Part shown: positions 19,501 through 44,625 of the stretch, one piece after another | Position numbering within the stretch: position 1 is the stretch's first letter | Layout of the letters: each line of letters starts with the position of its first letter | NCBI GenBank assembly: GCA_043822885.1 | Contig: JBDRBI010000087.1 | Coordinates: 1 to 45,236 of the forward strand | DNA: 45,236 bases | DNA from: Candidatus Omnitrophota bacterium | GTDB lineage: Bacteria; Omnitrophota; Gorgyraeia; Tantalellales; Tantalellaceae | Direction of reading: 5' to 3' | Notes under the pieces: generated by a model | Told to the model about the DNA's origin: nothing | What the model saw: the letters and a program-made list of their open reading frames with translations, nothing else | Databases searched by the model: none | Made by a program: the position numbers and the translations under genes

Positions 19501-19580
19501 TTCTCTCTCCTTGTTTTATAGAAGTCAGAAGCCAGAAGTTAGAGGGTAGATCCAAACCCGGTAACTACTTCCTCTGTTTT

Positions 19581-19640
19581 TTCTATATCTTCTATCTTCT
19601 ACCTTCTATCCTCTATCTTCTCGCCTCTCGCCTCTCTATT
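19581..19640 (-). repeat. Heptad tandem repeat (sense AxGxTAG) directly after the leuC stop, with a partially complementary CTTCTxx tract at 19519-19548
   Basis: The plus strand reads ttctata tcttcta tcttcta ccttcta tcctcta tcttctc gcctctc gcctctc. Confidence 0.85.
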
Positions 19641-20903
19641 CTACAGCCTGCGCTTATGCTCCCTAGGATCCGCTATTTTGCCTTCAAGCGCCGTAGCCGC
19701 GGCTGTCGCCGGACTTCCGAGATATATACTTGATCTGGGGTTTCCCATACGTCCTTTGAAATTTCTGTTGGCCGTTGAGAAAGCATTCTCTCCGTCCGCC
19801 AACACTCCTTGATGAGTCCCCACACAAGGGCCGCATCCCGGGTTATTGAATATTCCTCCGGCATTGATAAATATTTCCACTAATCCTCTTTTTATAGCTT
19901 CAAGAGCTATTGATTGCGACGCAGGCGTTATTATCAATTTCAAGCCTTTGGCGATCTTTCTGTTTTTCAGTATCTTTGCCGCGATCTCCAGGTCCTCGAT
20001 CCTTCCGTTGGTACATGTACCTATATTGACTTCGTCTATAGGCGTACCCAGAACTTCTTCCACGCTGCATACATTATCGACCGTATGGGGTCTGGCTACC
20101 TGCGGGGTCAGATCACTAAGATCATATTCCTTCTCATCGATATAACGCGCGTCCGGGTCAGCTTCTACCGTATCGTATTCTTTTACAGAATGCCTTTTTA
20201 CCCAATCGGTAGTCTTCTTGTCCGCTTTCATCAACCCGCATTTTGCTCCCATCTCGACTGCCATGTTAGATATTGTAAAGCGCGCCTCAATGCTAAGTTC
20301 ATCTATGACCTTTCCGTAGAATTCAACAGCTTTATATGTAGCTCCGTCGGCTCCTACGTCCCCTATCAGATACAGTATTACGTCTTTCGAATACACACCT
20401 TTCGGAAGATCCCCGTTTAAAACCATCTTTATTGTTTCAGGGACCATAAACCAGTTCTTACCGCTTGCTAGAGTTATCGCCAGATCCGTAGACCCCACGC
20501 CCGTGGAAAAAGCGTTTATCGCCCCGTAAGTACAGGTATGAGAATCAGCGCCTAATACAAGATCTCCGCATGTCACGAACCCGGTCTCCGGTATCAATTG
20601 ATGACATACTCCGGCCCCTACATCGAACACTCTTACATTATGTTCTTTGGAGAATTTTCTTATTTTGTCATGTATCGCGGATACCCCGATATTGGGACTT
20701 GGACAAGAATGGTCAAGCACCATACAGAATGCTTTTTTATCAAACACTTTCTCCCGGCCCATCTTTCGAAAACTGTCTATTATCATCCCGCTGGTACCAT
20801 CCTGTCCGAAACAAAAATCCACGTCCGCTATCACGATGTCGCCCGCTCTGGCTTTTTTTCCTGAATGTGTGGATAATATTTTTTCAGCGATCGTCTGCCT
20901 CAT
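19641..20903 (-). CDS. leuC: 3-isopropylmalate/(homo)aconitate dehydratase large subunit, archaeal-type (420 aa)
   Basis: Aconitase-family motifs with Fe-S ligand cysteines: VLDHSCPSP, GADSHTCTYGA, GTCTNGRIEDL, NPGCGPCVG. Confidence 0.85.
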   Translation of the reverse strand: MRQTIAEKILSTHSGKKARAGDIVIADVDFCFGQDGTSGMIIDSFRKMGREKVFDKKAFCMVLDHSCPSPNIGVSAIHDKIRKFSKEHNVRVFDVGAGVCHQLIPETGFVTCGDLVLGADSHTCTYGAINAFSTGVGSTDLAITLASGKNWFMVPETIKMVLNGDLPKGVYSKDVILYLIGDVGADGATYKAVEFYGKVIDELSIEARFTISNMAVEMGAKCGLMKADKKTTDWVKRHSVKEYDTVEADPDARYIDEKEYDLSDLTPQVARPHTVDNVCSVEEVLGTPIDEVNIGTCTNGRIEDLEIAAKILKNRKIAKGLKLIITPASQSIALEAIKRGLVEIFINAGGIFNNPGCGPCVGTHQGVLADGENAFSTANRNFKGRMGNPRSSIYLGSPATAAATALEGKIADPREHKRRL

Positions 20904-20927
20904 CCTTACTCCTTTTCTAAACCCTAT

Positions 20928-22094
20928 CTAACCCCTGTTATTTATAAAGTCCTTGATCCTCTTTGCCCCTTTTTCCAGCGTATCCATATCAGTGGCAAAG
21001 CTTATACGTATAGCGCCGTCATCACCAAAAGGACCACCGGGGATAACAGCTACTTTTTTTTCCTTCAATATCTTCTCGGCAAACCCGAAAGAATCCATGC
21101 CTGTTCCGGAGATATCGCAAAAAAGATAAAATGCGCCGCTCGGCCTGAATGCCCTTAATCTTTCTTCACCTGAAAAACTCTTCAGAAGAAAGTCCCGGCG
21201 TTTAGAAAATTCCTTGGTATTTTTTTCCATAGTTTTTCTTAAGTCCGCTGTGAGAGCGCATTCTGAGGCAGCTTGACTTATCGAACACGGGTTTGAAGTC
21301 GCATGGCTTTGAAGAGTCGAAGCTAATTTTATGATTTTCTCATCTCCCGCCGCGTATCCTACTCTCCAGCCGGTCATAGAATGGCTTTTTGAAACACCGT
21401 TTATTACTATTGTCAAAGCATACGCTTCTTTAGAAACAGAGGCTATCGATATATGCTTCTTCCCGTCAAATATGATCTTTTCATATATCTCATCGCTTAT
21501 GATCAGGATGTTCTTTTCTACACAAATATCCGCGATCTTTTTGAGTTCTTCTTCTTCATACACAACACCGGTAGGATTAGAAGGACTGTTTATGATTATC
21601 GCTTTTGTTCTTGAAGTTATCGCTTTTCTTATATCATCCGGAGTTGTTTTGTAATCTTCATTCATAGGTAAAAATACGGGAACGCCGCCTGCTAGTTTTA
21701 CCATTTCCGGATAGCTGAGCCAATAAGGAGGCACTATAAGCACTTCATCTCCATCAGAACAGATCACCTGTAAAATGTTATATATTGAATGTTTTGCTCC
21801 GTTGGAAACAATAATATTTTTGGGTTCGTACTCCAAATTATTGTCTTCTTTAAGCTTGCGGCATATCGCTTTTTTGAGCGAAAGCGTTCCCGACGCCGGA
21901 GTATATTTGGTCTGTCCCTTTTTGATCGCTTCAATGCCCGCATTTTTGACGATTTCCGGTGTATCAAAATCCGGTTCTCCTGCCGCTAATATCACAACAT
22001 CTTCACCCGCAGCTACCATCGCCTTGGCTTTGGATGTTATGGCAAGTGTCTCCGATGGCTTGATGCCGGAGATCTTTTTAGATAATTTCATCAT
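20928..22094 (-). CDS. Aspartate/aromatic aminotransferase, class I
   Basis: GEPDFDTP, NSPSNPTG and SKSHSMTGWRVGY. The likely start is Met11 or Met12 (22094 or 22091), just after GAGGGAGGG. The track ORF extends to 22124. Confidence 0.8.
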   Translation of the reverse strand: MMKLSKKISGIKPSETLAITSKAKAMVAAGEDVVILAAGEPDFDTPEIVKNAGIEAIKKGQTKYTPASGTLSLKKAICRKLKEDNNLEYEPKNIIVSNGAKHSIYNILQVICSDGDEVLIVPPYWLSYPEMVKLAGGVPVFLPMNEDYKTTPDDIRKAITSRTKAIIINSPSNPTGVVYEEEELKKIADICVEKNILIISDEIYEKIIFDGKKHISIASVSKEAYALTIVINGVSKSHSMTGWRVGYAAGDEKIIKLASTLQSHATSNPCSISQAASECALTADLRKTMEKNTKEFSKRRDFLLKSFSGEERLRAFRPSGAFYLFCDISGTGMDSFGFAEKILKEKKVAVIPGGPFGDDGAIRISFATDMDTLEKGAKRIKDFINNRG

Positions 22095-22133
22095 AATACC
22101 CTCCCTCATGGATCTATTTATCAAGACTAATTA

Positions 22134-22186
22134 AGATAACATAATGTACTTAGTATTACAAGAGGGAAAAATTTCAAATTTTTCCT
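22134..22186 (-). promoter_or_regulatory. Sigma70-like promoter with extended -10 upstream of the aminotransferase gene, flanked by an AT-rich palindrome
   Basis: The minus strand reads TTGTAA (22157-22162), a 17 nt spacer ending in TGT, then TATCTT (22134-22139). The ATTATGTTAT-N-TTAA core is shared with the giant-gene promoter. The palindrome GGAAAAATTT-G-AAATTTTTCC (22166-22186) abuts the -35. Confidence 0.4.
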
Positions 22187-22251
22187 TTTTGTTCTCATTA
22201 CAAGCCTGTTTTCTGTTTAAATTCTCAGCTATTTTAGGCTATAACTGTAAC

Positions 22252-22423
22252 AGTTTAGCTTGTGTAAGTTGCATAGCGCAAAGAGCATGGCGCATGGCAT
22301 TATAAAAATAAAAATCATCCTTCAAGATATTACGTTCTCGGTCTCTCACTCTGAATGATAAGGGGCGCATCGGTCAATATGCTATGCTCTATGCTCTTTG
22401 CGTTTTTTACGCAAGCTAAACTG
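22252..22423. repeat. 172-bp element bounded by long inverted repeats (MITE-like or structured RNA)
   Basis: CAGTTTAGCTTGTGTAA...GCGCAAAGAGCAT at the left pairs with ATGCTCTTTGCG...TTACGCAAGCTAAACTG at the right: a 17-bp outer arm with 1 mismatch and an 11-bp perfect inner arm. It encloses an ATTGACCGATG motif and short heptad repeats. Confidence 0.55.
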
Positions 22424-22455
22424 CTACCAATAAATTGTCCCGGTCCGGAAGAATG

Positions 22456-22929
22456 TTAGTTATTTTTCCACAATCCACGATCGGATCGGCGGGCTTCTTC
22501 CTGTATGCTTTTAAATTCCTCTAAATATCTCAGGTTCGGAAAAATAAAAAGGGTTCTGGCTAAACCGCTTCTCAAAAGTTCCTCATTTACCATCAAACCA
22601 TCATGTGTTTTTACATAAGCTAAGAGCCTTCCGTATTTATCAAGTTTTTCCGTGTCAAATTCCAGGGAAACTTCTTTCCCTTCAACGAGATCCTTATTGA
22701 ACGCTTTTGCTTCAACGCTATATGGTTCAGGATCAAATATCCATATACCGTTTTTTATCTTATTGGTCTCGGGCGTATCTACTCCGATGTATCTTACCCT
22801 CTCACCATTCCACAATTCGATCGTATCGCCGTCTATGACCTTTTTAACTACGAACCACTGCGGTTCGGCGATCGAGAAAGTTGCGCACAGAATTAACACG
22901 ATCAATACTGTGATAATCTTGTATCTCAT
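22456..22929 (-). CDS. Secreted staphylococcal-nuclease-like (SNase/thermonuclease) protein
   Basis: Signal peptide MRYKIITVLIVLILCATFSIA, then SNase motifs DGDTIEL, VRYIGVDTPE, YGRLLAYV, NEELLRSGLA, RGLW. Confidence 0.8.
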   Translation of the reverse strand: MRYKIITVLIVLILCATFSIAEPQWFVVKKVIDGDTIELWNGERVRYIGVDTPETNKIKNGIWIFDPEPYSVEAKAFNKDLVEGKEVSLEFDTEKLDKYGRLLAYVKTHDGLMVNEELLRSGLARTLFIFPNLRYLEEFKSIQEEARRSDRGLWKNN

Positions 22930-22952
22930 TCCGCTTCTCTTATTTTTATTTT

Positions 22953-23023
22953 CTAACCTGGTTAATCGTGCCGGGTAAATTATTTAGTTTCACAATAACC
23001 CGGCAGCTTTTTAACCAGGTTAG
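22953..23023. repeat. Nested palindrome containing TAACCWGGTTA arms
   Basis: CTAACCTGGTTAA (22953-22965) is the exact reverse complement of TTAACCAGGTTAG (23011-23023). The inner arms GCCGGGT (22970-22976) and ACCCGGC (22998-23004) also pair. The related sequence TAACCTGGTTAG...CCAGGTTAG occurs at 13565-13595. Confidence 0.6.
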
Positions 23024-23044
23024 TAATACTTAACTGTTCACTAT

Positions 23045-23689
23045 TTACTGTTCACGAGTCACAGCTGAGGGGCATAGGTCTTTCAACAAGCATTCCCGGC
23101 AGTTCGGACGTCGGGCATCGCATACCGCGCGTCCGTGTGAGATCAGAAGGTTAGATAATTTTCCCCATTTTTTTCTGTCAAATATCATCATGAGATCTTT
23201 TTCTATTTTCACGGGATCTGTGTTTTTCGATAACCCTAGTCGAGCGCTTAATCTTTTAACGTGCGTATCAACGGCTATTCCGTCATTCTTTCCAAACTCG
23301 TGAAAAAGCACGATATTCGCGGTTTTCCTGGCTACTCCCGGGAGTTTTATCAGATCCTCCATGTCTTCAGGAACTCTCCCGTTAAAATCTTTAAGAATCA
23401 TTTTCGCCGCTTCTATGATGTTTTTTGCTTTATTCCTGAAAAATCCTGTCGAATGTATCTCCTTTTCAAATGTCTCTCGATCCGCATCGGCAAAATCTTT
23501 TACATCTTTATATTTTTTGAATAATACCTTTGTTACTTTGTTGACCCTCTCATCCGTACATTGCGCCGAGAGTATCGTCGCCGTCAGAAGTTGTACGGCG
23601 TTCTTGTGGACAAGCGCCGTTACAGCGTCAGGATACAGTTTCTCCAGTATCCGGTATATCTTGTCAGCTTGTTTCTTGTTCTCTTTCAT
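23045..23689 (-). CDS. nth: Endonuclease III
   Basis: HhH-GPD motif LPGVARKTANIVL, VDTHVKR, and the C-terminal 4Fe-4S cluster loop C-x6-C-x2-C-x5-C (CDARRPNCRECLLKDLC). Confidence 0.9.
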   Translation of the reverse strand: MKENKKQADKIYRILEKLYPDAVTALVHKNAVQLLTATILSAQCTDERVNKVTKVLFKKYKDVKDFADADRETFEKEIHSTGFFRNKAKNIIEAAKMILKDFNGRVPEDMEDLIKLPGVARKTANIVLFHEFGKNDGIAVDTHVKRLSARLGLSKNTDPVKIEKDLMMIFDRKKWGKLSNLLISHGRAVCDARRPNCRECLLKDLCPSAVTREQ

Positions 23690-23743
23690 TATTTTTGATT
23701 TTGTCTTTTTGCTTTTGGATTTTATGGATAATATTTCTATCTA

Positions 23744-23801
23744 AGATTGCTTCCCCCCGTCGCTTTGCTCCGCAAAGCGGAGCAGCGGGGGTCGCAATGA
23801 C
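23744..23801 (-). repeat. Stem-loop repeat unit with a GC-rich hairpin insert (mutL-nth spacer)
   Basis: The minus strand reads GTCATTGCGA-CCCCCGCTGCTCCGCTTTGCGGAGCAAAGCGACGGGGGG-AAGCAATCT. A degenerate copy may lie at 16787-16818 (GTAATTGCGAAGAGCGCGGCACGAAGTGATCC). Confidence 0.75.
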
Positions 23802-23881
23802 AGAAGGAAGCACATCGGTCAATATCAGTCTATTGTCTATGGTCTATTGTCTATGGTCTTTTCACTATTCACCATTATACG

Positions 23882-25633
23882 CTACTTCCGCCTAAACCTC
23901 TTCTCCATCTCATCTATTGTAACTTTAAAACTTGTCGGACGTCCGTGAGGGCAAGTGAACGGCAATTCGCATCTTTCTAATTGTTCGAGTACCGATATCA
24001 TTTCCTCTCTTTCAAGCTTATCTCCCGCCTTTATAGCGCCTCTGCAAGCGGCTATTTTAACCAATTCATCCAGCTGATCTATTTTACTCATTTTTAGACC
24101 CGCCGCGTCCTCCAAAACATCGCGCACTACTGTCTTCACGTCTCTATATCTTAAAATTGCCGGAACCGATTGTACCGCGAAAGAATTTTCCCCGAAACTT
24201 TCTATCACGAACCCTATCCTTTTGAAATTTTCCGCCATATTTTCCATTACAAGCGTTTCGTCTCGGGAAAGGTCTAATCTTACGGGAAAAAGAAGATTCT
24301 GCCCTTCAGGGGGCCCTGATTCTTTTGCTTTACTGAAAATTTCATACAGGATCCGTTCATGCGCCGCGTGTTGATCGGTTATGATCACGCCTTCATTTTC
24401 TATTTTGACAATATAACAATCCCCTACCTGAAATATGCTGGTATCTTCCTTTCTGTATACGGTCTTTTCTCCGAAAAAAGCGATCGGTTTTTCGGAAAAA
24501 GTCTTTTGAGTCGTCATTATATTTTCTGTTTTGTAAGAGAATTCTGGCTGATTTTCTACCGCAGTTCCCTCCAAAACCAGATCTTCTCTCATAGGATCAG
24601 GATCCATCATTGTTTCCGACAAGGCCTTTTCCGTTCTTTCTTTTACTGAGTAGAATCCATCGCGTATTGTTTCATGTAAAAGAAGTTTAATGGTTTTTTC
24701 GTCGCTGAACTTTACCATAAGTTTTGAAGGATGCACATTAACATCTACATCTTCAGGTGATACCGTTAAGAACAGAACAGCCTGAGGATATCGGCCTCTT
24801 TCCAGCATACTTTTATAGGCGGAGTGTAAAGTGTCACTCAATATTTTACTTTTTATAAAACGCCCGTTCATAAAGAACATCTGGCCTCTTGAGTCTTTTC
24901 TTGTCATGGAGGGCCGGCTTATAAACCCTTTTACTTCATATTTACCGGTGCGGCCGGAAACCTCTATCATGCTGTCGGCTGCATCATTTCCTAATACGGC
25001 AGATATTCTTTTGAGATGATCCGTGCCGGATCTTACGTTTAAAAGGTATCTTCCCCCTTGTGATAGTTTTATTTCGATCTCGGGGTTAGATACGGCAAAT
25101 CTTCCTACTATCGAGACTATTTCAGAAAGCTCTGTAGAAACCGTTCTTAGAAATTTTCTGCGGACCGGTACATTATAAAAAAGGGTTCTAACCTCTATTG
25201 TCGTACCTTGCGGTCTTCCTTGAGGCCGTGTTTTTAAGATCTCTCCGCTTTCTATATAAAGATAAACGCCGCTATCTTCTTTCCCGTCAAAACTTGTTAT
25301 CTCCAGTTTAGAAACAGCGGCTATACTGGCAAGCGCTTCGCCTCTGAACCCCAGGGTATTTATGTTATACAGATCTTGCGCATCTTTGATCTTGCTTGTA
25401 GCGTGACGAAGACAGGCAAGTTTAGCGTCCGAAGAGCTCATTCCTTTACCGCTATCCGCTACCCTGATCAAAGTATTCCCGGCATTCTCTATTTCTATAT
25501 CTATACTGTCCGCTCCGGCGTCTATGGAATTTTCGATAAGCTCTTTAACGACCGAGGCGGGGCGTTCAACTACTTCACCGGCGGATATCTTCCCAATAAC
25601 TTCTTCGCTTAATATGTTGATGTGTGTACTCAT
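23882..25633 (-). CDS. mutL: DNA mismatch repair protein MutL
   Basis: GHKL ATPase N-terminus ISAGEVVERPASVVKELIENSIDAGA, GFRGEAL, and C-terminal dimerisation/endonuclease region motifs (DQHAAHERI; CPHGRP). The start is at Met8 after GGAGG. The track ORF extends to 25654. Confidence 0.95.
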   Translation of the reverse strand: MSTHINILSEEVIGKISAGEVVERPASVVKELIENSIDAGADSIDIEIENAGNTLIRVADSGKGMSSSDAKLACLRHATSKIKDAQDLYNINTLGFRGEALASIAAVSKLEITSFDGKEDSGVYLYIESGEILKTRPQGRPQGTTIEVRTLFYNVPVRRKFLRTVSTELSEIVSIVGRFAVSNPEIEIKLSQGGRYLLNVRSGTDHLKRISAVLGNDAADSMIEVSGRTGKYEVKGFISRPSMTRKDSRGQMFFMNGRFIKSKILSDTLHSAYKSMLERGRYPQAVLFLTVSPEDVDVNVHPSKLMVKFSDEKTIKLLLHETIRDGFYSVKERTEKALSETMMDPDPMREDLVLEGTAVENQPEFSYKTENIMTTQKTFSEKPIAFFGEKTVYRKEDTSIFQVGDCYIVKIENEGVIITDQHAAHERILYEIFSKAKESGPPEGQNLLFPVRLDLSRDETLVMENMAENFKRIGFVIESFGENSFAVQSVPAILRYRDVKTVVRDVLEDAAGLKMSKIDQLDELVKIAACRGAIKAGDKLEREEMISVLEQLERCELPFTCPHGRPTSFKVTIDEMEKRFRRK

Positions 25634-25753
25634 TATTCCTCCGTTAGAGCGCATTTCGTATAGCGTATATCGTATAGCGTATATCGTAAAAATGAAAAAC
25701 GCGGGACATTCTTTGTCCGGGGACTACACCCCCACAGAAAGAGTGTCCCCACC

Positions 25754-28360
25754 TTATCCTTCCACGTCTATTTCCCTTTTAAACTCCGCTATACGCTCAA
25801 GCGCCTCAAGCGGGGTCATTTTATCGACTTCCATATCTCTCAATTTTTTGATCACAGGATGGTCTTTGAAACTGTCGGAGAAAAAATCTATCTGTTTTTC
25901 CGCAGCTTTTTCCGTATGTTCCGAGAAACGTTTCCGTATGCTTCCTTTGACGGAATCTTTTCTTAAGTTGTCCAATATCTCTTGGGACCTTGTAACAACA
26001 TGCCGCGGCATCCCCGCTAGTTTCGCCACATGTATACCGAAACTTTCGTCGCAGCTTCCCTCTTTGACCTTATAAAGAAAAGCTATATCCTTTCCCCATT
26101 CCTGCACTTCAAGATGATAGTTTTTCACTCCCGTGATCATCTGGCTAAGTTCGGTCAATTCATGATAATGCGTCGCGAACATGACCTTAGACCCGGCAAT
26201 ATTATGATGTAAGTATTCTACCACCGCCCAGGCTATTGATACACCGTCAAAGGTGCTCGTCCCCCTTCCTATCTCATCAAGTATTACGAGGCTCTTTGAT
26301 GTCGCGTTGTTCAGGATATTAGCGGTCTCCAGCATCTCTACCATGAACGTGCTCATGCCCTTATATAACTTGTCAGAGGCGCCTACACGCGTAAAAACCC
26401 TGTCGACTATACCTATATCAGCCTTACTGGCGGGCACAAAGCTCCCGATCTGGGCCATTATGGTTATAATGGCCGTTTGTCTGATAAAAGTTGATTTTCC
26501 GGCCATGTTAGACCCTGTTATTATGAATATCCTGTCGTTTTCGGGGTCCATATTCACGTCATTGGGGACAAAGGCCTTATCTTTAAGTATTTTCTCCAAC
26601 ACAGGATGCCGCCCGTTCTTGATACTCAGAATACCGTCTTCATTGATCCTGGGTCTAGTGTATTTGTTGCAAACGGCGGTCTCCGCTAAACTCGATACAA
26701 CATCCAGTTCTGAGACCGCGTCCGCTGTCCTCTTAAGCCTTTCTATATGAGAACCTATTTTTTCTCTGAGCTCACAAAATATTTCATATTCCAGATTTTT
26801 TAGCTTTTCTTCGGATCCTATAATACGCGTTTCTTTCTCTTTTAGCTCTTCCGTGATAAAGCGTTCCGCGTTCACTAGGGTCTGTTTACGCACATAATCT
26901 TCGGGAACATCGTCGATCTTGGATCTCGTCACTTCTATGTAATACCCGAATACTTTATTAAAACCAACCTTCAATGAATTGATGCCCGTTCTCTCTATTT
27001 CTTTTCTCTGAAGCTCCTGCAGCCAGTCTTTGCCTCCGGAGACGAAGGATCTAAGCTCATCCGCGTTCTTATTGTAGCCTTTCCGTATCAATCCGCCGTC
27101 CTTTATGGTAACCGGAGGGGAATCCACTAAAGCATTGTCCGCCTCGGAGATGATCCCGTCAAAATTGTCCAACCGGGAAACAAGGTCTTTTATCATGCGG
27201 GGCATGTTTCCTTTAATGGCCGCGCGCAATTCTCTTATCTTTTTCAGTGACGCGGAAAGGGACCTGACATCTCTCGCGTTAGCTGTTCCCAAGCTCATCT
27301 TATTGGAAAGCCTTTCCGTATCATAAACCGCTCCCAACAGTTCCCTTGCGTCTTCACATACAAAAGTATTGTCATAAAAATACTGTACAGCATCAAGCCT
27401 TTCCATTATTTGTTCTTTATTTACCAAGGGGTTCAGGATATACCGTTTAAGCTTACGCTTTCCCATAGGCGTTTTTGTCCTGTCCAGGATATCCAATAAA
27501 GTGCCGCTTTCGGACATATCATCGTTATTCTGCAAGAGTTCAAGATGGCGCTGCGAATTCCTGTCCAGACTCATATGCTGACTCACATGATATGTAGAGA
27601 TACTGTTTATATTCTTAAGACGCGCTCTTTGTGTATTCTCAAGATATTTTAAGAGAGCTCCGGCCGCGCCCACAGCCACGGGCATATCATGACACCCGAA
27701 CCCCTCCAGGGTGTCCACGGAAAAATGTTTTTTCATATCTTTTACGGACGTCTTTGTGTCAAACATCCAGTCTTCTTCTTTGGTGACCGCGTTTAGTGTT
27801 ATATCTTCCGCTTTCTTGAAATTCTCATCATCATAAAGTGAGGCCGGGACAAGGCATTCCGACGGGGATATTTTATATAATTCTGTCGAGAGTTCCTGCG
27901 GAGTGTCGAGTTCTGTGACCCTGAATTCACCCGTAGAGATATCGGCATATGCCAAGCCGAACTTCTTCTTATCAAAATTAAGCGCCAGGATATAATTATT
28001 TACGGCGCCTTCCAGTATTTCATCGGCAATGAAAGTTCCCGGAGTTATCACCCTGGTGATCTTTCTTTCGACAAGTTTCTTCCCGGGCAGGGGTTCTTCT
28101 ATCTGTTCGCATATAGCTACTTTTTTTCCGTGCCTAATGAGACGCGCTATATAATTTTTAGCCGCGTGATGGGGAACCCCGCACATCGGCACTTTGTTCC
28201 CTCTTGAAGTCAGTGTAATATGCAGTATTTTTGAGGCTTCTAAAGCATCCTCAAAGAACATTTCATAAAAATCGCCGAGTCTAAAAAAGAGTATGGAATC
28301 TTTTTGTTCCCGTTTTATATCCAAATATTGCCGCATCATCGGTGTAAGTTCTGTTCCCAT
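25754..28360 (-). CDS. mutS: DNA mismatch repair protein MutS
   Basis: TPMMRQYLDIK, GDFYEMF, Walker A TGSNMAGKST, DEIGRGTST, ATHYHEL. The ATG start is at 28358-28360 after GGAGGAAA. The track ORF begins at an upstream TTG (28378). Confidence 0.95.
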   Translation of the reverse strand: MGTELTPMMRQYLDIKREQKDSILFFRLGDFYEMFFEDALEASKILHITLTSRGNKVPMCGVPHHAAKNYIARLIRHGKKVAICEQIEEPLPGKKLVERKITRVITPGTFIADEILEGAVNNYILALNFDKKKFGLAYADISTGEFRVTELDTPQELSTELYKISPSECLVPASLYDDENFKKAEDITLNAVTKEEDWMFDTKTSVKDMKKHFSVDTLEGFGCHDMPVAVGAAGALLKYLENTQRARLKNINSISTYHVSQHMSLDRNSQRHLELLQNNDDMSESGTLLDILDRTKTPMGKRKLKRYILNPLVNKEQIMERLDAVQYFYDNTFVCEDARELLGAVYDTERLSNKMSLGTANARDVRSLSASLKKIRELRAAIKGNMPRMIKDLVSRLDNFDGIISEADNALVDSPPVTIKDGGLIRKGYNKNADELRSFVSGGKDWLQELQRKEIERTGINSLKVGFNKVFGYYIEVTRSKIDDVPEDYVRKQTLVNAERFITEELKEKETRIIGSEEKLKNLEYEIFCELREKIGSHIERLKRTADAVSELDVVSSLAETAVCNKYTRPRINEDGILSIKNGRHPVLEKILKDKAFVPNDVNMDPENDRIFIITGSNMAGKSTFIRQTAIITIMAQIGSFVPASKADIGIVDRVFTRVGASDKLYKGMSTFMVEMLETANILNNATSKSLVILDEIGRGTSTFDGVSIAWAVVEYLHHNIAGSKVMFATHYHELTELSQMITGVKNYHLEVQEWGKDIAFLYKVKEGSCDESFGIHVAKLAGMPRHVVTRSQEILDNLRKDSVKGSIRKRFSEHTEKAAEKQIDFFSDSFKDHPVIKKLRDMEVDKMTPLEALERIAEFKREIDVEG

Positions 28361-28382: not shown

Positions 28383-28445
28383 AAAAGGCCAGAATGCCAA
28401 AAGTGCCGGATATTATGTTCCTCACTTTGACTCTTCTGGCCTTTT
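28383..28445 (-). terminator. Terminator-like long hairpin downstream of rplQ
   Basis: The minus strand reads AAAAGGCCAGAA...(bulged inner stem CAAAGTG/CACTTTTG)...TTCTGGCCTTTT followed by AATTTTGAT. It lies between the rplQ stop (28474) and the mutS start. Confidence 0.45.
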
Positions 28446-30763: not shown

Positions 30764-30793
30764 ATTTTATCTCCTTGAAATAACATTTTTGTT

Positions 30794-30865
30794 TGATGTG
30801 TTATGTGTGATGTTCGTAGCGCTGTTTTAGTCATTACACATTACACTTTACACATTACACAATAC
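30794..30865 (-). repeat. Heptad tract (sense TGTGTAA x4-5) after the rpsK stop, plus a complementary arm; same sequence family as 31837-31914
   Basis: The plus strand reads tcattac acattac actttac acattac acaatac (30831-30865). The arm tgatgtgttatgtgtgatg (30794-30812) can pair with it, 13 of 15 bp in the segment I checked. Confidence 0.75.
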
Positions 30866-31258
30866 CTAAACTCTTCTTCTCTTCTTCTCTCTGCATCCAT
30901 TATGCGGAGTTGGTGTCAGATCTAAGATACCTTTAACATTAAATCCTTCTGCCCTTACGCTTCTTACAGCGCTTTCTTTACCCGGACCGGGTCCTCTTAA
31001 AATGATCTCGACATCTCTAAGTCCGTGATTTTTAGCTTTCATGACCGCGTCTTTCGCGGCCTTACTTGCCGCAAACGGTGTAGATTTTCTGGATCCTTTA
31101 AATCCCACCATTCCGGGAGAGCTCCAGCATAATACTTTGCCTTCTTTATCCGTTACGGTAACTATAGTATTGTTAAACGTCGCGTGAACAAATACTTTGC
31201 CGCTGGAAACCTTTACCAGTATTTTTTTACGCTTTTTTGTCTTAGCTTTCTTTTGCAT
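30866..31258 (-). CDS. rpsK: 30S ribosomal protein S11
   Basis: VHATFNNTIVTVTD, GFKGSRKSTPFAA, PHNGCR. Confidence 0.97.
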   Translation of the reverse strand: MQKKAKTKKRKKILVKVSSGKVFVHATFNNTIVTVTDKEGKVLCWSSPGMVGFKGSRKSTPFAASKAAKDAVMKAKNHGLRDVEIILRGPGPGKESAVRSVRAEGFNVKGILDLTPTPHNGCREKKRRRV

Positions 31259-31414
31259 TTATAGCCTTCCTTGTTTAGTCGTAACTCGTTATTCGTTATT
31301 CGGTCTTGCTTCTTTTTCTAGTCACCCGGTGACCTGCTTGCCCCGAGCGAAGCCGAGGGGGTGACTGGGTAACTGGTGACTAGTTCATTTTGCTCACTTC
31401 TATTGTACTCCTGA

Positions 31415-31810
31415 TCATTCTTTTGTTGCCGTCCTAGCGGTTCTATCCTTAAACGCTCCTATGGTTTTCTTAGGGCCTTTCCTGGTGCGCGCGTTTGTTT
31501 TTGTTCTCTGACCTCGTACGGGAAGATTGCGTTTGTGACGTGTTCCCCTGTACGCGCCGATACTCATAAGACGTTTGATATTACTCATCTGCATACGCCG
31601 CAGATCACCTTCGACCTGGTACGATTCCTGGATTATACGCGTTATAGCCAGTATTTCCTGGTCATCAATATCCTTTGCCCTCTTGTCGGGGGAAATATTA
31701 GCTTCTTTAAGAATGTCCTTTGATGTCTTTAATCCTATACCAAAGATATACGTCAATGCTATCTCTATTCTTTTGGCTTCCGGTATATCCACACCTAATA
31801 TTCTCGGCAT
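31415..31810 (-). CDS. rpsM: 30S ribosomal protein S13
   Basis: [10 protein letters not shown]...ALTYIFGIG...[23 protein letters not shown]. Confidence 0.97.
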
Positions 31811-31836
31811 CTTTGTCTCCTTTAAATAGCCATTTT

Positions 31837-31914
31837 TGTGTTATGTGTGATGAGTGATGTGTTATGCTTTATCTTTTCATCTCTCATTATGCATAACACA
31901 TCACACATAACACA
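31837..31914 (-). repeat. Long imperfect hairpin built from TGTGTTA/TGTGTGA heptads between rpmJ and rpsM
   Basis: tgtgttatgtgtgatgagtgatgtgttatgc (31837-31867) pairs with gcataacacatcacacataacaca (31891-31914). The sense heptads are TGTGTTA TGTGTGA TGTGTTA TGCATAA TGAGAGA TGAAAAG. Confidence 0.8.
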
Positions 31915-31917
31915 GCT

Positions 31918-32031
31918 TTATCCCTGTCTCTGTTTATGTTTAGGGTCTTTACAAATGATCCTAACAACGCCTTTTCTGCGTACTACTTTACAATGCGTGC
32001 ACATTTTTCTGACACTTGGTCTTACTTTCAT
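31918..32031 (-). CDS. rpmJ: 50S ribosomal protein L36 (37 aa; too short for the ORF track)
   Basis: Hand translation gives [37 protein letters not shown], the canonical zinc-ribbon L36. It lies 2 nt downstream of infA. Confidence 0.9.
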
Positions 32032-32033
32032 AA

Positions 32034-36527: not shown

Positions 36528-36557
36528 ATCTTCTTCCTCTATATTTTGCCTTCCAAC

Positions 36558-36599
36558 TGTTTACTGTTCACCGTTCACTGTTCACTGTTCACTATTCAC
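36558..36599 (-). repeat. Heptanucleotide tandem repeat (sense GTGAACA x6) directly after the rplF stop
   Basis: The plus strand reads tgtttac tgttcac cgttcac tgttcac tgttcac tattcac. In the sense strand TGA or TAA recurs every 7 nt. Confidence 0.85.
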
Positions 36600-36601
36600 C
36601 G

Positions 36602-37138
36602 TTAAGCTACACTCTTACCCTGCTTCTGTCTAACGTATTCACCTTCATACCTTATTCCTTTACCTTTATACGGTTCAGGAGGATAATAAGCTCTTATTTC
36701 GGCCGCGACTTCTCCTACCTTCTGCTTATCCTCACCTTTTATAACAATATCAGTGGGACTTGTGGTTTCGATAATAACATCTAAAGGCGGAGTATATTCC
36801 ACACTATGTGAAAACCCGATATCGAGCACAAGTTTCTTACCCTTGATCTGAGCCTTGTACCCTACTCCCTGTATTTTAAGCTTTTTTTGAAAACCATCTT
36901 TAAGACCTTTCACCATGTTCTGTATAAGGCTTCTGCTTGTTCCATGTAAAGCTTTGTGCTCACGCGAATCCGATGGCCTCGTTATTTCGATCTTATTGTC
37001 TTTTATTCCGATATTAAATCCTTCAGGAATACTATGTTCCAGACTTTTCCCTTTTCCTTCCACCTTTACGTTACGTCCATCGATCGTAACCTTTATTCCG
37101 CTTGGTATATCTATCGGACGCTTTCCAACTCTAGACAT
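36602..37138 (-). CDS. rplF: 50S ribosomal protein L6
   Basis: MSRVGKRPIDIPSGIKV...YYPPEPYKGKGIRY. Confidence 0.96.
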   Translation of the reverse strand: MSRVGKRPIDIPSGIKVTIDGRNVKVEGKGKSLEHSIPEGFNIGIKDNKIEITRPSDSREHKALHGTSRSLIQNMVKGLKDGFQKKLKIQGVGYKAQIKGKKLVLDIGFSHSVEYTPPLDVIIETTSPTDIVIKGEDKQKVGEVAAEIRAYYPPEPYKGKGIRYEGEYVRQKQGKSVA

Positions 37139-37197: not shown

Positions 37198-37297
37198 AAC
37201 TATCAACTACGAACCATGAACTATGAACTATCAACTATCAACCAGATAGCGCAACAGTCAATCACTACGAACTACGAACCATGAACTATTAACTCTA
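37198..37297 (-). repeat. Two heptad repeat tracts (sense xxTAGTT/xxTGGTT) flanking a GATTGACTGTTG motif, directly after the rpsH stop
   Basis: 37198-37246 reads aactatc aactacg aaccatg aactatg aactatc aactatc aaccaga. 37263-37297 reads cactacg aactacg aaccatg aactatt aactcta. Confidence 0.85.
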
Positions 37298-37696
37298 TTA
37301 CCATATCGTACAGATAACTTCGCCGCCGATCTGTTTCTCGCGTGCTTCCTTATCCGTTAAAAGCCCCTGACTTGTTGAAATTATGGAGATACCTACTCCG
37401 CCCATAACTTCTTTAATTTTTTTAGAGGGCAAATATTCCCGTCTACCCGGCTTAGATATCTTTTTAAGTCCCTCAAGAACGGATTGTCCGTTCTCCAGAT
37501 ATTTTAAATAGACCTTTATCTGTCCCTGTTTATTGTCCTCTATTACCTTGTAATTCGAGATAAATCCTTCCCTCTTGGCTATATCAACTATTCCTTCCAG
37601 TATCCCGGATTTTTTGATCACTACGTCTTTTTTTCCTGCTCTTATCGCATTTCTTATACGGGTCAATTGATCAGCCGTTAAATCTGTAACACTCAT
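37298..37696 (-). CDS. rpsH: 30S ribosomal protein S8
   Basis: MSVTDLTADQLTRIRNA. The start is at ATG 37694-37696 after AGGAGAAAAG. The track ORF extends to 37735. Confidence 0.95.
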   Translation of the reverse strand: MSVTDLTADQLTRIRNAIRAGKKDVVIKKSGILEGIVDIAKREGFISNYKVIEDNKQGQIKVYLKYLENGQSVLEGLKKISKPGRREYLPSKKIKEVMGGVGISIISTSQGLLTDKEAREKQIGGEVICTIW

Positions 37697-37772
37697 CTTT
37701 TCTCCTGTTTTTATATCCCTTTTTCCATGTTCCATGGTCTACTGTCCATGGTCTATTATCTATGATCTACAC

Positions 37773-37982: not shown

Positions 37983-38079
37983 GTCATTGCGAGGAGGCTA
38001 CAAGCCGACGAAGCAATCTCCTTTTGTATCTCTGCAAGTTAAACAGATTGCTTCGCTCACTTTGTTCGCTCGCAATGAC
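37983..38079. repeat. Inverted pair of stem-loop repeat units (rplE-rpsN spacer)
   Basis: GTCATTGCGAGGAGGCTACAAGCCGACGAAGCAATCTC at 37983-38010, and AGATTGCTTCGCTCACTTTGTTCGCTCGCAATGAC at 38045-38079. Confidence 0.85.
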
Positions 38080-38090
38080 GGAAATTTTCC

Positions 38091-38651: not shown

Positions 38652-38669
38652 ATTGTTTTTCTCCTATAT

Positions 38670-38733
38670 AGATTGCTTCGGCCTACGGCCCCGCAATGAC
38701 GGGTGTCATTGCGAGCGTCAGCGAAGCAATCTC
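38670..38733. repeat. Inverted pair of stem-loop repeat units (rplX-rplE spacer)
   Basis: AGATTGCTTCGGCCTACGGCCCCGCAATGAC at 38670-38700, then GTCATTGCGAGCGTCAGCGAAGCAATCTC at 38705-38733. Confidence 0.85.
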
Positions 38734-38810
38734 TACTATCCACTCTAAATCTACACATCGGTCAATCCCCGGACCATTAAACTATTTAACCATTCAACTA
38801 TTAAACTGTT

Positions 38811-39122: not shown

Positions 39123-39132
39123 TTCAGTCCTC

Positions 39133-39501
39133 CTAAATAACCTCAGGGGCAAGAGATATTATTTTCATGAAATTTTTTCCTCTAAGTTCACGCGCTATAG
39201 GTCCGAAAACACGTGTTCCTCGCGGGTTTTTATCTTTATCTATTATCACTACGGCATTACTGTCAAATTTCAGAACAGTTCCGTCCTTTCTGAAAATAGG
39301 ATACGCCGTCCTTACCACAACGGCTTTTACAACTTCTCCCTTTTTTACCTCAGCCGTCGGTGTAGACTCCTTAATATTGCATGTAATAATGTCCCCGATC
39401 TCTGCCGTTCTCTTGCCGGATCTTCCTATTACGCCTATCATAGAAGCCTTTTTCGCCCCGCTGTTATCAGCGACATCAAGTATGCTCCTCATTATAATCA
39501 T
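39133..39501 (-). CDS. rplN: 50S ribosomal protein L14
   Basis: [11 protein letters not shown]...IRFDSNA-like [10 protein letters not shown]. Confidence 0.96.
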
Positions 39502-39505
39502 TTCG

Positions 39506-40369: not shown

Positions 40370-40381
40370 CTCTTACTACTC

Positions 40382-41053: not shown

Positions 41054-41058
41054 ATCTC

Positions 41059-41472: not shown

Positions 41473-41499
41473 ATTTTTTCTCCCACTCTTTACCTATCT

Positions 41500-41605
41500 G
41501 TCATTGCGAGGCCAACTTGTCCCGAGCGAAGTCGAGGGAAGACCGAAGCAATTTCTATCGATTTATGTTCAGATTGCTTCGCTCACTTTGTTCGCTCGCA
41601 ATGAC
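41500..41605. repeat. Inverted pair of stem-loop repeat units (rpsS-rplV spacer)
   Basis: GTCATTGCGAG-...CCCGAGCGAAGTCGAGGG...-GAAGCAAT at 41500-41553. AGATTGCTTCGCTCACTTTGTTCGCTCGCAATGAC at 41571-41605 is identical over 35 bp to 38045-38079. Confidence 0.85.
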
Positions 41606-41618
41606 GGGTCTATTATCA

Positions 41619-41903
41619 TTACGTTTTATCCATAGACTGTTTGGTGGCCGCGCCATGGGTTCTGAATTTACGCGTCGGGGCAAATTCTCCCAGCTTATGT
41701 CCAACCATGTTCTCAGTTATAAACAAGGGGTTAAAAGTTTTCCCGTTATGCACCGAGATCGTAAGTCCCACAAAATCCGGCAAAACAACAGATCTTCTGG
41801 ACCAAGTCTTTATCGGTTTTTTACTGCCTGAGGACTGTATCTTGTCTATTTTTTTTCTAAGGCATTCATCTACAAACGGCCCTTTTTTCACTGATCTCGA
41901 CAT
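41619..41903 (-). CDS. rpsS: 30S ribosomal protein S19
   Basis: [13 protein letters not shown]...[33 protein letters not shown]. The start is at ATG 41901-41903 after AGGAGAAG. The track ORF extends to 41951. Confidence 0.95.
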
Positions 41904-42010
41904 ACTATCTTCTCCTAAATGAAACCATAACTTATGGAGCAACAGCAACATAAGTTATATGGTCGAATTTACCCCCGCGCTTAGGTTTCGAAGAAATCTG
42001 CGGGGGTTTG

Positions 42011-42838
42011 TCACTTACTTCTTCTTTTAACTATCTTATTGTCCGACGCTTTTCTCTTTTTACGCGTCTTTAATCCTTTGGTAATCTTTCCCCAAGGTGT
42101 TACCGGATGTCTTCCCCCGGAAGATTTGCCTTCTCCTCCACCCATAGGATGGTCAACCGGATTTTTCACGACTGCCCTTGAAAGCGGCCTTCTTCCCAGA
42201 TGCCTGGATCTTCCGGCTTTACCAAGATCTATATTTTCATGGTCGGGATTTCCTACTTTCCCTATCGACGCGTAACAAGCCGCTTTGACCAATCTTATCT
42301 CTCCGCTGGGCATCCTGAGATGCACATTGTCCCCGTCCTTAGCTTCAACAGTAGCGCTATTCCCGGCGGACCTTGCTATTTTAGCGCCCTTTCCCGGATC
42401 CATTTCTATACAATATACTTCGGCTCCCAAAGGTACATTTCTAAGAGGCAGAGCATTGCCCGGTTCTATCTTGGGGTTCTCTCCGGAAGTCACGGTAAAA
42501 CCTACTTTGAGTCCTATAGGAGCGATAATATACACTTTGTTCCCATCCTCATACTGGACCAAAGCTATCCTGGCAGATCTGTTGGGATCATATTCAATAG
42601 CTTGGACGATACCTGTCTTCTCTTTGTGACTGTACCTGAAATTTATCAGGCGATATCTTCTTTTGTGTCCGCCGCCTCGTCCTCTTGAAGTTATGCGTCC
42701 AAGGTTATTACGACCGCCTTTTTTACGTAATGCTCTCGTTAAGGATTTTTCGGGTGTATTTTTGGTAATTTCCGCGAAATCCGAAACACTTCCCCATCTT
42801 CTTCCTGGTGTGGTCGCGTTAAATTTTTTAACTGCCAT
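42011..42838 (-). CDS. rplB: 50S ribosomal protein L2
   Basis: [14 protein letters not shown]...GGGHKRRYR...[19 protein letters not shown]. The start is at ATG 42836-42838. The extended track ORF (to 42907) reads through a repeat unit (SLRAKRSNL). Confidence 0.95.
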
Positions 42839-42857
42839 GTCTTTCCCTTTTTTTATT

Positions 42858-42884
42858 AGATTGCTTCTCTTCGCTCGCAACGAC
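42858..42884 (-). repeat. Single minimal stem-loop repeat unit upstream of the rplB RBS
   Basis: The minus strand reads GTCGTTGCGAGCGAAGAGAAGCAATCT. Confidence 0.7.
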
Positions 42885-42932
42885 AGAGGAGCCACTACAT
42901 TCCCCATAAAACTTGTGCATCAGTCAATCCCT

Positions 42933-42981
42933 GTCAATGGTCAATGGTCTATTGTCTATGGTCTACTAATCACCATTCTCT
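42933..42981 (-). repeat. Heptad tandem repeat (sense CATAGAC/CATTGAC) directly after the rplW stop
   Basis: The plus strand reads gtcaatg gtcaatg gtctatt gtctatg gtctact aatcacc attctct. The closely related tract gtctatt gtctatg x2 occurs at 23828-23876 after mutL. Confidence 0.85.
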
Positions 42982-42982
42982 G

Positions 42983-43261
42983 CTAAGCCGATTCAATTTT
43001 ATTATCCGGTTTTAACGTCACTATAGCTTTTTTCCATGAAGCTGTCATACCTTCCTGCTGTCTGACCCGTTTTTTCTTGCCTTTGACGTTCATAATATGC
43101 ACGTCATTAACTTTCACCTTGTATATTTCTTCCACGGCTTTTTTTACCTCGATCTTATTCGTCCTTTTATCCACCTTGAAAAGATATTTGTTCTGCATCA
43201 AGAGATTTGATCCCTTTTCGGTGCGTATCATATTTTTTATTACGTCGTGTAATGATTTCAT
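42983..43261 (-). CDS. rplW: 50S ribosomal protein L23
   Basis: IRTEKGSNLLMQNKYLFKVDKRTNKIEVKKAVEEIYKVKV. Confidence 0.95.
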   Translation of the reverse strand: MKSLHDVIKNMIRTEKGSNLLMQNKYLFKVDKRTNKIEVKKAVEEIYKVKVNDVHIMNVKGKKKRVRQQEGMTASWKKAIVTLKPDNKIESA

Positions 43262-43893
43262 TTTAACCTCTCAACCAATTTTTCAAGAGCTTCTTTCTCT
43301 ATCACCAGAAACTCATTAAGCAAAACATCTCTAGCATTAAGGTTGCGGCCTTCTTTGAGACTTATGTTCTTAATGTTGCGCGAAGACCTTTTTACCCCTT
43401 CCGAGACAACATCCACCACTATCAAGGTCTTACCCTCTACCTTTAAGGCCTTTAATATGTCTGTAAAAGTTTTAGTTTTGACCTTTTCCACGTCCAGCTT
43501 TAGCACAGACTTTATCATCTGTTCTGAAAGTCTGGCGTTTAGGATCGATAACAAAGCTCTCTTAACGGCTTTTTTCGGCATAGAATATCCATGATCTCTG
43601 GGTCTAGGCCCAAAAGCTATCCCTCCGTGTCTCCATAAGGGGTTTCTTGATGATCCTACACGCGCTCGTCCTGTACCTTTTTGACGCCAGGGTTTAGCCC
43701 CTCCTCCGGAAACTTCTCCCCGTGTCTTGGTAGAAGCTGTTCCCCTTCGGGCATTAGCCTCGTACATTTTTTTTGCCTCATAAAGGAGCGTCTTATTTAC
43801 ACGCCCGTTGAATAGCTTGGTATCCAATTGAAAATTATCAACGACTTTTCCTTTGAGATCATATACCGGTATTGTTGTGCTTGCCTCTGCCAT
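43258..43893 (-). CDS. rplD: 50S ribosomal protein L4
   Basis: GTASTKTRGEVSGGGAKPWRQKGTGRARVGSSRNPLWRHGG. Confidence 0.96.
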   Translation of the reverse strand: MAEASTTIPVYDLKGKVVDNFQLDTKLFNGRVNKTLLYEAKKMYEANARRGTASTKTRGEVSGGGAKPWRQKGTGRARVGSSRNPLWRHGGIAFGPRPRDHGYSMPKKAVKRALLSILNARLSEQMIKSVLKLDVEKVKTKTFTDILKALKVEGKTLIVVDVVSEGVKRSSRNIKNISLKEGRNLNARDVLLNEFLVIEKEALEKLVERLK

Positions 43894-43905
43894 GTCTTTT
43901 ACCCT

Positions 43906-44625
43906 TTATTCTTTTGTCTTTTCTTCCGTTTGTTCTTCATTTTTAGTTTCTTCTGCTTTTTCTTTCCTGGGACCGAGTATTTTCTTTTTTGCGTATTTTA
44001 TTATCGTGTAAGACCCGTTTGCTCCGGGTACGGCCCCTTTAACTACAATTGTGTTGTTTTCCGTATTCACGCTGACGATCTCGATATTTTGTACGGTCGT
44101 TATCGCATCGCCCATATGTCCCGGCATCCTTTGCCCTTTAAAAACTCTGGAAGGGAAAGAACTGGCTCCTATAGAACCGGGCGCCCGATGAGACATAGAA
44201 CCATGAGTTTCCTGACCGCCTTTCCACCCGTGTCTTTTCACGCCGCCCTGAAACCCTTTACCTTTTGAACGGGTTGTTATATCAAGAAAATCTCCTTCCT
44301 GAAACATCGCGACCGTTATTTCTTCACCGATCTTGATATCCGCAGTTTTTTCGCATCTTATCTCGCGCACAAACTTTTTTGGTTTTAGTTTGTTCGCCGA
44401 TAAATATGCCCGCTGCGGTTTTTTCAGGCGTTTCTCTTTTGTATCATCAAACCCGATCTGCACCGCTTCATATCCGTCTTTTTTCAAAGATCTGACAATT
44501 TGAACAACACACGGTCCGGCTTCTATAACTGTCACCGGTACAGATTCGCCGTCTTCTTTAAAGATCCTTGTCATTCCGATTTTTTTTCCCAATATTCCAG
44601 GAATCATATTCATTACCCCATTCAT
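43906..44625 (-). CDS. rplC: 50S ribosomal protein L3 with a Lys/Glu-rich C-terminal tail
   Basis: [13 protein letters not shown]...[14 protein letters not shown]. The true start may be Met7 (44607). The tail is [27 protein letters not shown]. Confidence 0.95.

Follow-up and report, generated by a model that had tools for sequence, protein, structure and literature searches.

Why should the gaps between the ribosomal-protein genes of a bacterium be filled with tandem repeats of seven nucleotides, most of which begin at, or within a few nucleotides of, the preceding stop codon? The question is raised by a 45,236-nt contig from a Candidatus Omnitrophota bacterium (JBDRBI010000087.1 of assembly GCA_043822885.1), which was analysed in its entirety and is called the window below; every gene lies on its minus strand, and the sense strand is thus the reverse complement. 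The arrays are probably heptanucleotide satellites of the STRR or long simple sequence repeat (LSSR) type, which would be carried on small dispersed elements, amplified by slippage, turned over fast and tolerated nowhere but in the stretch from a stop codon to the ribosome-binding site that follows. Among the roles listed in the initial annotation of this DNA, that of slippage-prone junk tolerated in the lineage fits best: relatives have between zero and four arrays, which stand at other junctions, and strains of about 97% identity differ by whole elements.

The repeats themselves are real and confined to spacers, as borne out by running Tandem Repeats Finder (TRF) on the window together with a shuffled control. 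TRF reports period-7 arrays at 19586-19636, 23828-23868, 25648-25688, 30790-30813, 30832-30865, 31275-31302, 31892-31914, 36556-36603, 37198-37242, 37264-37288, 37731-37770 and 42933-42965; the total is 10-13, spread over 19.5-43 kb. A lag-p self-match scan of the window detects arrays with p=7 and with the doubled period p=14 only, none appearing for p=4-6 or 8-13; the period-8 variant that had been noticed earlier is recovered by TRF with a period of 16 (2 x 8) at 38773-38806. When an array is defined by 21-nt windows with a self-match of at least 80%, all ten arrays found fall in the non-coding part of the window (2,937 bases or 6.5%), and the 42.3 kb of coding sequence have none; spacer-by-spacer shuffling yields a mean of 0.005, and the length of the arrays thus exceeds chance for their composition. 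Contigs from public sequencing runs match the window with no differences over arrays at 31543-31963, 30969-31336, 25532-25782 and 37218-37730; as independent runs reproduce several of them exactly, the arrays are not assembly artefacts. The gene names of the initial annotation are correct, the product of its leuC being an archaeal-type LeuC/HacA large subunit, and the features of the spacers are the following.

19520..19548, minus strand: inverted partner tract, AGAAGYC on the plus strand (TRF 19520-19538), pairing with 19581-19636 in a long hairpin.
19581..19636, minus strand: heptamer array of about eight units, sense GAGAGGC/GATAGAA/GGTAGAA, 4 nt past the stop of the LeuC-type gene (TRF, lag-7 scan).
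22277..22402, minus strand: inverted heptamer arms in a 331-nt spacer, GCATGGC-type at 22277-22300 and CTATGCT-type at 22379-22402, with motif ATTGACCGATG at 22368-22378 (repeat search; TRF 22382-22401).
23028..23055, minus strand: GTGAACA/GTAAATA array of four units spanning the end of nth, whose stop TAA (23045-23047) lies inside the second unit (direct-repeat match to 36560-36599).
23813..23876, minus strand: composite element after mutL, in sense order GGTGAATAGTGAA, ATAGACC/ATAGACA units and motif ATTGACCGATG (23813-23823) (TRF period 14 with 100% matches; repeat search, alignment).
25653..25691, minus strand: ATACGMT array abutting the mutL start codon, with no sense stop; exact in run X1 contig 25532-25782.
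30790..30865, minus strand: TGTGTAA array (30826-30865), 0 nt past the rpsK stop and upstream of rpsD, with inverted partner (30790-30813); weak hairpin, homologous to the rpsM leader element.
31275..31307, minus strand: CGAATAA/CGAGTTA array in the rpsM>rpsK spacer, nearer the rpsK start (TRF, lag-7); exact in run X1 contig 30969-31336.
31318..31387, minus strand: local hairpin with GTCACC/GTTACC-type arms and a GC-rich core (fold; whole-spacer z only -0.24).
31834..31914, minus strand: inverted TGTGTTA/TGTGTGA arrays forming a long hairpin, 3 nt past the rpmJ stop and upstream of rpsM; ortholog in L087.
36555..36603, minus strand: GTGAACA array of about seven units, unstructured as RNA, 0 nt past the rplF stop (TRF score 68); family also in L001 and L081.
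37198..37297, minus strand: two TAGTTSR arrays, 37264-37297 (right past the rpsH stop) and 37198-37246, with motif-like ATTGACTGTTG at 37252-37262 between them (TRF, lag scan, repeat search); region exact in run X3 contig 37218-37730.
37736..37772, minus strand: ATAGAYN/ATGGACA array, 0 nt past the rpsN stop (TRF); third copy of the mutL/rplW element, 66%.
38756..38808, minus strand: period-8/16 array TTTAATAG/TTGAATGG, 2 nt past the rplX stop, followed by motif ATTGACCGATG at 38756-38766 (TRF period 16, alignment).
42918..42976, minus strand: the composite element in a second copy, past rplW; its sense order is GGTGATTAGT, ATAGACC/ATTGACC units and motif ATTGACTGATG (42918-42928) (repeat search, alignment, TRF).

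The adjacency to stop codons that had been noticed at the outset stands: ten of 12 first arrays begin 0-6 nt past the upstream stop codon or run across it, which random placement inside the spacer does not explain (Fisher combined p = 4e-7). The next start codon lies 27-136 nt away for 11 of the 12, the mutL array alone abutting a start, and the downstream genes have their own Shine-Dalgarno sequences outside the arrays. For mutL no Shine-Dalgarno sequence is recognisable, and the ATACGMT array reaches its ATG (25654-25691), as TAACTGA repeats do in Beggiatoaceae. Spacers of 70-160 nt are indeed unusual for these operons, the orthologous ones being compact in the relatives L083 and L214. As the window comprises 45 kb with genes on a single strand, an array orientation linked to transcription is inseparable in it from one linked to replication.

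The arrays had been described as specific to their loci, a view that does not hold, since the families GTGAAYA, ATAGACN, TAGTTSR and TGTGTKA recur at several loci of the window and in related genomes; each is found at 2-3 loci within the 45 kb, with further copies in community contigs, many of which hold the window's array words between flanks unlike its own. The copies share more than their units. The elements after mutL and rplW (23813-23859 and 42918-42964) are 85% identical over 47 nt, non-repeat flank included; 23030-23055 resembles 36560-36599 with the same identity of 85%, and 30794-30814 matches 31834-31868. An alignment of five spacers of the window and one of L081 displays a common layout of stop codon, GTGAAYA-type units, ATAGAC-type units and (G)GGATTGACYGATGYGC, and a motif ATTGACYGATG closes the arrays on their 3' side at five loci, with a variant in L081. 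The 11-mer CATCGGTCAAT is present in three exact copies and one with a single mismatch, all four on the same strand and beside arrays, for a chance expectation, estimated from the length of the window, of about 0.02 exact matches. In the relatives and in 1.9 Mb of other loci, motif ATTGACCGATG does not occur beyond chance, the L081 variant and one possible case in L131 being noted. The TTGAC of the motif was also considered as part of internal promoters, an idea that was rejected, there being no excess of promoter-like sites and a -10-like hexamer after one of five motif copies only.

Judged from its sequence, the host is an uncultured groundwater bacterium of the phylum Omnitrophota: with 88-93% identity, its SecY matches proteins from metagenome-assembled genomes (MAGs) of Candidatus Omnitrophota, Ca. 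Aadella gelida and Ca. Tantalella remota among them. Eight related loci with the same 88-93% SecY identity are syntenic over a region of about 21-25 kb (S10-spc-alpha-mutS-mutL-nth), and the number of arrays in this region varies from at least ten in the window to four in L081, three in L087 and in L001, two in L211 and one in L213, while L083, L209 and L214 have no arrays in the same operons and their spacers are compact. The junctions occupied differ from genome to genome, and this comparison of orthologous spacers, which upholds the unusual spacer length, again speaks against locus-specificity, as families recur at non-orthologous junctions. The rplF>rplR junction thus holds TAGTTCR in L087 and L001 and GTGAACA in the window; GTGAAYA followed by GGGAATGACTGATGTGCAA stands at rpsS>rplV in L081. 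The TGTGTKA hairpin and its conserved leader upstream of rpsM are orthologous between the window and L087, with a paralogous copy upstream of rpsD in the window. Read from array and gene coordinates, about seven of ten arrays in the relatives begin 0-1 nt past a stop. L211 and L213 have identical SecY proteins and DNA that is 96.8-97.6% identical: an element made of (ACAGGTT)n, a GC core and (AACCTGA)n lies at mutS>mutL in L213 and is absent there from L211, in which a homologue sits at rpsS>rplV. Presence/absence polymorphism between close strains is thus seen in the relatives. In the same two strains, a comparison of L213 9602-9848 with L211 14084-14145 reveals a 185-nt insertion between rpsK and rpsD whose ends are inverted (GGGGTCGGGGTGTTTTCC ... 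GGAAAACACCCCGACCCC); it is present in one of the two and flanked by duplicated AATTAAAT.

Beyond these close relatives, period 7 is again the commonest in 1.38 Mb of more distant loci, with 14 arrays against 0-5 for each other period. When public metagenomes were scanned for runs of four GTRAAYA units, at least 120 contigs matched, of which 80 were used as loci (L089-L168); their G+C content spans 0.31-0.71, and they carry GTGAATA/GTGAACA/GTAAACA arrays of 4-20 units, often with an inverted partner. The GTGAAYA family is cosmopolitan.

What, then, do the arrays do, if anything? Their stop codons led to the proposal of frame-independent translation stops, which would close all frames past each gene, catch ribosomes that read through or have shifted frame, and uncouple neighbouring cistrons. 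Arrays do begin 0-6 nt past stops, an array unit provides the nth stop codon, and sense stops are 1.4 times as dense as base composition predicts. Three-frame closure on the sense strand, initially ascribed to nearly all tracts, is found in seven of 13 arrays; if the seven columns of each array are permuted, keeping composition and periodicity, 5.7 of 13 are expected (p=0.30), and the total of 51 sense stops against 39.9 +/- 6.1 is a marginal excess whose p=0.04 treats non-independent arrays as independent. The mutS>mutL array has no sense stop, an exception rightly singled out before, and the arm tracts 30790-30813, 31834-31866 and 31890-31914 close one frame only; five to eight units also far exceed what a backup stop needs, and the GTGAAYA arrays of the 80 metagenome contigs point either way with respect to the neighbouring open reading frames (ORFs), 22 (++) against 19 (--), with no clear bias in what are crude ORF calls. 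The antisense strand was said to be free of stops, which is correct for four of the 13 main arrays (five of 16 tracts) and wrong for the remainder: antisense stops number 18 for 23.1 expected, and no array closes all three antisense frames where 3.1 would be expected to (p=0.025). The sense-strand composition of the arrays (A 0.38, G 0.23, T 0.25, C 0.14) is close to that of other spacer sequence and of the coding sense strand. Since their number lies near the compositional null, the array stops are mostly a by-product of composition, nothing beyond which speaks for a role in termination, and this explanation is very improbable. Alternatively, each array might have grown where it stands, by slippage that started from a chance duplication and without any transfer between loci. 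TRF detects perfect 14-nt double-unit duplications inside arrays, which suggest recent slippage, and heptamers are the commonest class of bacterial 5-11-nt repeats and are ascribed to polymerase slippage (Mrazek 2007, as summarised in PMC4679880 and PMC4692102). However, such local growth does not account for copies at separate loci that agree in their non-repeat flanks, in the order of their parts and in the ATTGACYGATG end, for homologous array-hairpin elements at different junctions of near-identical strains, or for the same families at non-orthologous junctions of several genomes, and slippage in place, taken by itself, has only a slim chance of being the answer.

A functional role for RNA structure deserves more weight, although it too is unlikely. 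In this explanation intercistronic hairpins would block 3'-to-5' exonucleases or direct processing, and so set the stabilities of segments of the ribosomal-protein transcripts; a like proposal exists for the STRR hairpins that cyanobacteria have between hupS and hupL (PMC2670836). The complementary partner tracts and hairpins described in the initial annotation exist, and its long hairpins are confirmed for inverted pairs and not for single arrays. The inverted arrays are far more stable than shuffled sequences in the leuC>leuD spacer (-35.9 kcal/mol, z -3.8) and at rpmJ>rpsM (-31.7 kcal/mol, z -4.8), less markedly so at rpsH>rplF (z -2.5) and rpsK>rpsD (z -1.6); the rpmJ>rpsM hairpin is orthologous in L087, and the one at rpsK>rpsD is built of heptamers in the window, L081 and L087, with differing units. 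Yet roughly one array in two is single and lacks structure (rplF>rplR, -2.9 kcal/mol, z +0.85; rpsN>rpsH; rplW>rplB), three close relatives (L083, L209 and L214) manage these operons with short, array-free spacers, and a double change is seen in only one of 20 predicted pairs of a three-sequence alignment. The arrays could alternatively form a platform on RNA or DNA for a protein that binds in a 7-nt register, such as a HutP- or TRAP-like oligomer or a nucleoid protein. The spacing of HutP sites is TAG-N4-TAG-N4-TAG, and this pattern occurs seven times on the sense strand, in five of 13 arrays, and once on the other strand, a possible likeness to periodic operators of the HutP/TRAP type; the other arrays lack TAG. 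A few unit families are common to genomes whose intergenic divergence is saturated, and for TAACTGA repeats a protein that binds them was suggested by MacGregor (PMC4679880). Against such a platform, at least five unrelated unit families coexist, TAG is present in about half only, the same operons lack arrays in close relatives and no candidate protein was identified; the idea is improbable. Somewhat related, and still quite unlikely, would be an undescribed Omnitrophota element whose heptad modules, sometimes with the ATTGACYGATG end, are inserted or retained at stops and tune ribosomal-protein cistrons at the RNA level through a 7-nt-register protein or through hairpins opened by the ribosome.

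Satellites on small dispersed elements, the explanation preferred here, would work as follows. A few unit families (GTGAAYA, ATAGACN, TAGTTSR, TGTGTKA) would be carried on small dispersed elements rather than made independently at each locus, some elements having a fixed internal order and the shared 3' end ATTGACYGATG, others consisting of an array, a GC core and an inverted array. Copies may be gained and lost as whole insertions or deletions, after which replication slippage could lengthen or shorten the arrays locally; MutS-type mismatch repair does not deal with loops as long as seven bases. Since a 7-nt unit is not divisible by 3, selection would purge arrays from coding sequence, and it would also clear them from the ribosome-binding region, an exclusion by which they would accumulate directly past stop codons. 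Their stop codons would then be a by-product of an A/G/T-rich, C-poor sense strand, and inverted pairs would fold into intercistronic hairpins that may incidentally affect mRNA decay, with no required function. Several observations weigh against this explanation. L087, whose SecY is 92% identical, has retained the rpmJ>rpsM hairpin at that junction, and the window, L081 and L087 all have a hairpin at rpsK>rpsD that is made from different units, so that the retained hairpins could reflect selection for structure. With ancestral spacers of 30-60 nt, simply keeping clear of the ribosome-binding site would not demand that arrays stand as close to stops as they do (0-2 nt), and sense stops reach 0.111 per trinucleotide for 0.079 expected. 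No transposase, RAYT or other mobilising gene is encoded in the 45 kb, no target-site duplication or terminal inverted repeat was found for the single-array elements, and the contigs of five DNA runs (X1-X5), at 2-5x depth, contain no length or copy-number variants of the arrays. The hairpin-type elements have inverted arms and no clear target duplication; in the single metatranscriptome run (X12), hardly any of the region is covered.

Other structures share the leaders and spacers with the arrays. The rpsD and rpsM leaders (30764-30865 and 31811-31917) have in common a module of about 100 nt, a heptamer-built hairpin followed by ACAAAAATGNYTATTTNAAGGAG, and the rpsM copy is conserved in L087 (12811-12910). 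In E. coli, S4 regulates the alpha operon at rpsM; by analogy the module could be an S4-type operator, and no Rfam leader family matches it. More generally, Rfam gives no match at gathering score, relaxed searches yielding generic miRNA-precursor hairpin matches only. The idea that the hairpins mask the ribosome-binding site of the next gene was considered and discarded, as their 3' arms finish 6-25 nt upstream of the Shine-Dalgarno sequence. After rplQ, a hairpin at 28383-28445 (GGCCAGAAGAGTCAAAGTG ... CACTTTTGGCATTCTGGCC, then Ts) is conserved in L081, L087 and L211 and is probably the terminator of the alpha operon.

Two further kinds of small element were encountered. Palindromes GTCATTGCGAG ... 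CGAAGCAATCT lie at 23744-23801, 37983-38079, 38670-38732, 41500-41605, 42858-42884 and 45031-45084, in the same spacers as heptamer arrays, and form strong hairpins (z -3 to -5). In four groundwater or biofilm metagenomes these stretches are found at 140-1,090x depth, against 2-5x for the organism, with flanks that differ in hundreds of contigs; the palindromic element is therefore common to many organisms. A cyanobacterial origin, which the heptamers and the GTCATTGCGAG palindromes might suggest, is ruled out by the position of rpsD inside the alpha operon and by the Omnitrophota relatives of SecY. The second element consists of a GC hairpin, (G)ATAAATTC, another hairpin and TCATTTA, just before the Shine-Dalgarno sequence. 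It is found upstream of rpsS in the window (41904-41975) and at differing ribosomal-operon junctions in distant Omnitrophota (L004 12659-12716; L006 7913-7969 and 8450-8510; L010 14698-14737; L021 15924-15982), as well as in L007 and L011; L007 has three tandem copies at rplO>secY.

The arrays also have practical consequences for gene calling. Plus-strand ORFs do read through them, as stated in the initial annotation (for example 42663-42986 and 23695-23895), and relative to their orthologues the longest ORFs of rpsH, rpsS, rplB and rplX reach upstream into the spacers (37697-37735, 41904-41951, 42845-42907 and 39123-39152); automatic gene calls at these places are likely to be too long or spurious. 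In these MAGs the arrays account for antisense ORFs that are spurious and for genes that are called too long, and they are likely break points of short-read assemblies. At the left end of the contig, a stop-free minus-strand frame of at least 4,506 codons (2-13519) runs off the end; it looks, from its sequence, like the gene of a giant protein, and the 1,500 residues tested gave a weak RHS-repeat match only.

That cyanobacteria and some other bacteria carry heptamer satellites has been known for decades. The contig and the eight Omnitrophota loci form a compact comparative set in which the same essential operons have from zero to more than ten arrays, with unit families shared at different junctions and gains and losses at strain level, and which lets one ask whether the arrays are mobile as elements, why a unit of 7 nt is favoured and whether the hairpins influence the fate of mRNA.

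How do the arrays compare with systems already described? STRR sequences of heterocystous cyanobacteria were reportedly treated by Mazel et al. in 1990, and their canonical units STRR1-3 are CCCCAGT, TTGGTCA and CAACAGT. The arrays of the window resemble them in having 7-bp tandem units of several families per genome, in intergenic positions that include the inside of operons, and in often forming hairpins; they differ in that the host belongs to the Omnitrophota, in that the three canonical units are never in tandem in the window, and in that the arrays abut stop codons, some of them ending in the lineage-specific ATTGACYGATG. As the class features (7-nt tandem units, non-coding location, hairpins) are found while the taxon and the canonical units are not, the arrays belong to the STRR/LSSR class and are not STRR sequences proper. 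For the cyanobacterial repeats, which can form hairpins between cistrons such as hupS-hupL and whose function is unknown, a role in transcript stability or translational coupling has been suggested (PMC2670836). LSSRs were treated by Mrazek, Guo and Shah in 2007 as repeats of 5-11-nt units, dominated by heptamers, for which polymerase slippage was proposed (as summarised in PMC4679880 and PMC4692102). The likeness extends to a sporadic phylogenetic distribution and a non-coding bias (PMC4679880); however, the arrays described here form families with shared flanks and are inserted or deleted between strains, which simple slippage does not explain.

Among individual heptamers, the TAACTGA repeats of marine Beggiatoaceae, cyanobacteria and Bacteroidetes (PMC4679880) are similarly intergenic, lie in part in ribosomal-protein operons and have a patchy cross-phylum distribution. 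They are direct repeats of a single unit in 2-6 copies that stand just upstream of starts and replace the Shine-Dalgarno sequence (PMC4679880), whereas here many units lie just past stops and the mutL array alone abuts a start; no tandem TAACTGA occurs in the window. The GGGAATC/GGGGAYT repeats of Xanthomonas and Nostoc (PMC4692102) share the enrichment of heptamers between co-oriented genes, the variability among close relatives and the inverted copies, but are G-rich, quadruplex-forming and preferably of four units (PMC4692102), in contrast to the A/T/G-rich arrays of the window, which have no G-tracts. By comparison with REP/REPIN sequences and elements of the miniature inverted-repeat transposable element (MITE) type (PMC3116915), the arrays are likewise short, dispersed, intergenic, hairpin-forming copies, present or absent according to strain and tolerated inside operons; their dispersed copies have conserved ends (85% over 47 nt; the 3' motif at five loci), while their stems are built of heptamer satellites, and neither a RAYT or transposase in the window nor a target-site duplication was seen. 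Behaviour like that of MITEs is shown in the relatives, with no transposase (45 kb), terminal inverted repeat or target-site duplication found. What this dataset would add to the STRR/LSSR class is that the arrays appear to travel as parts of small dispersed elements, with a turnover that takes place within about 3% sequence divergence.

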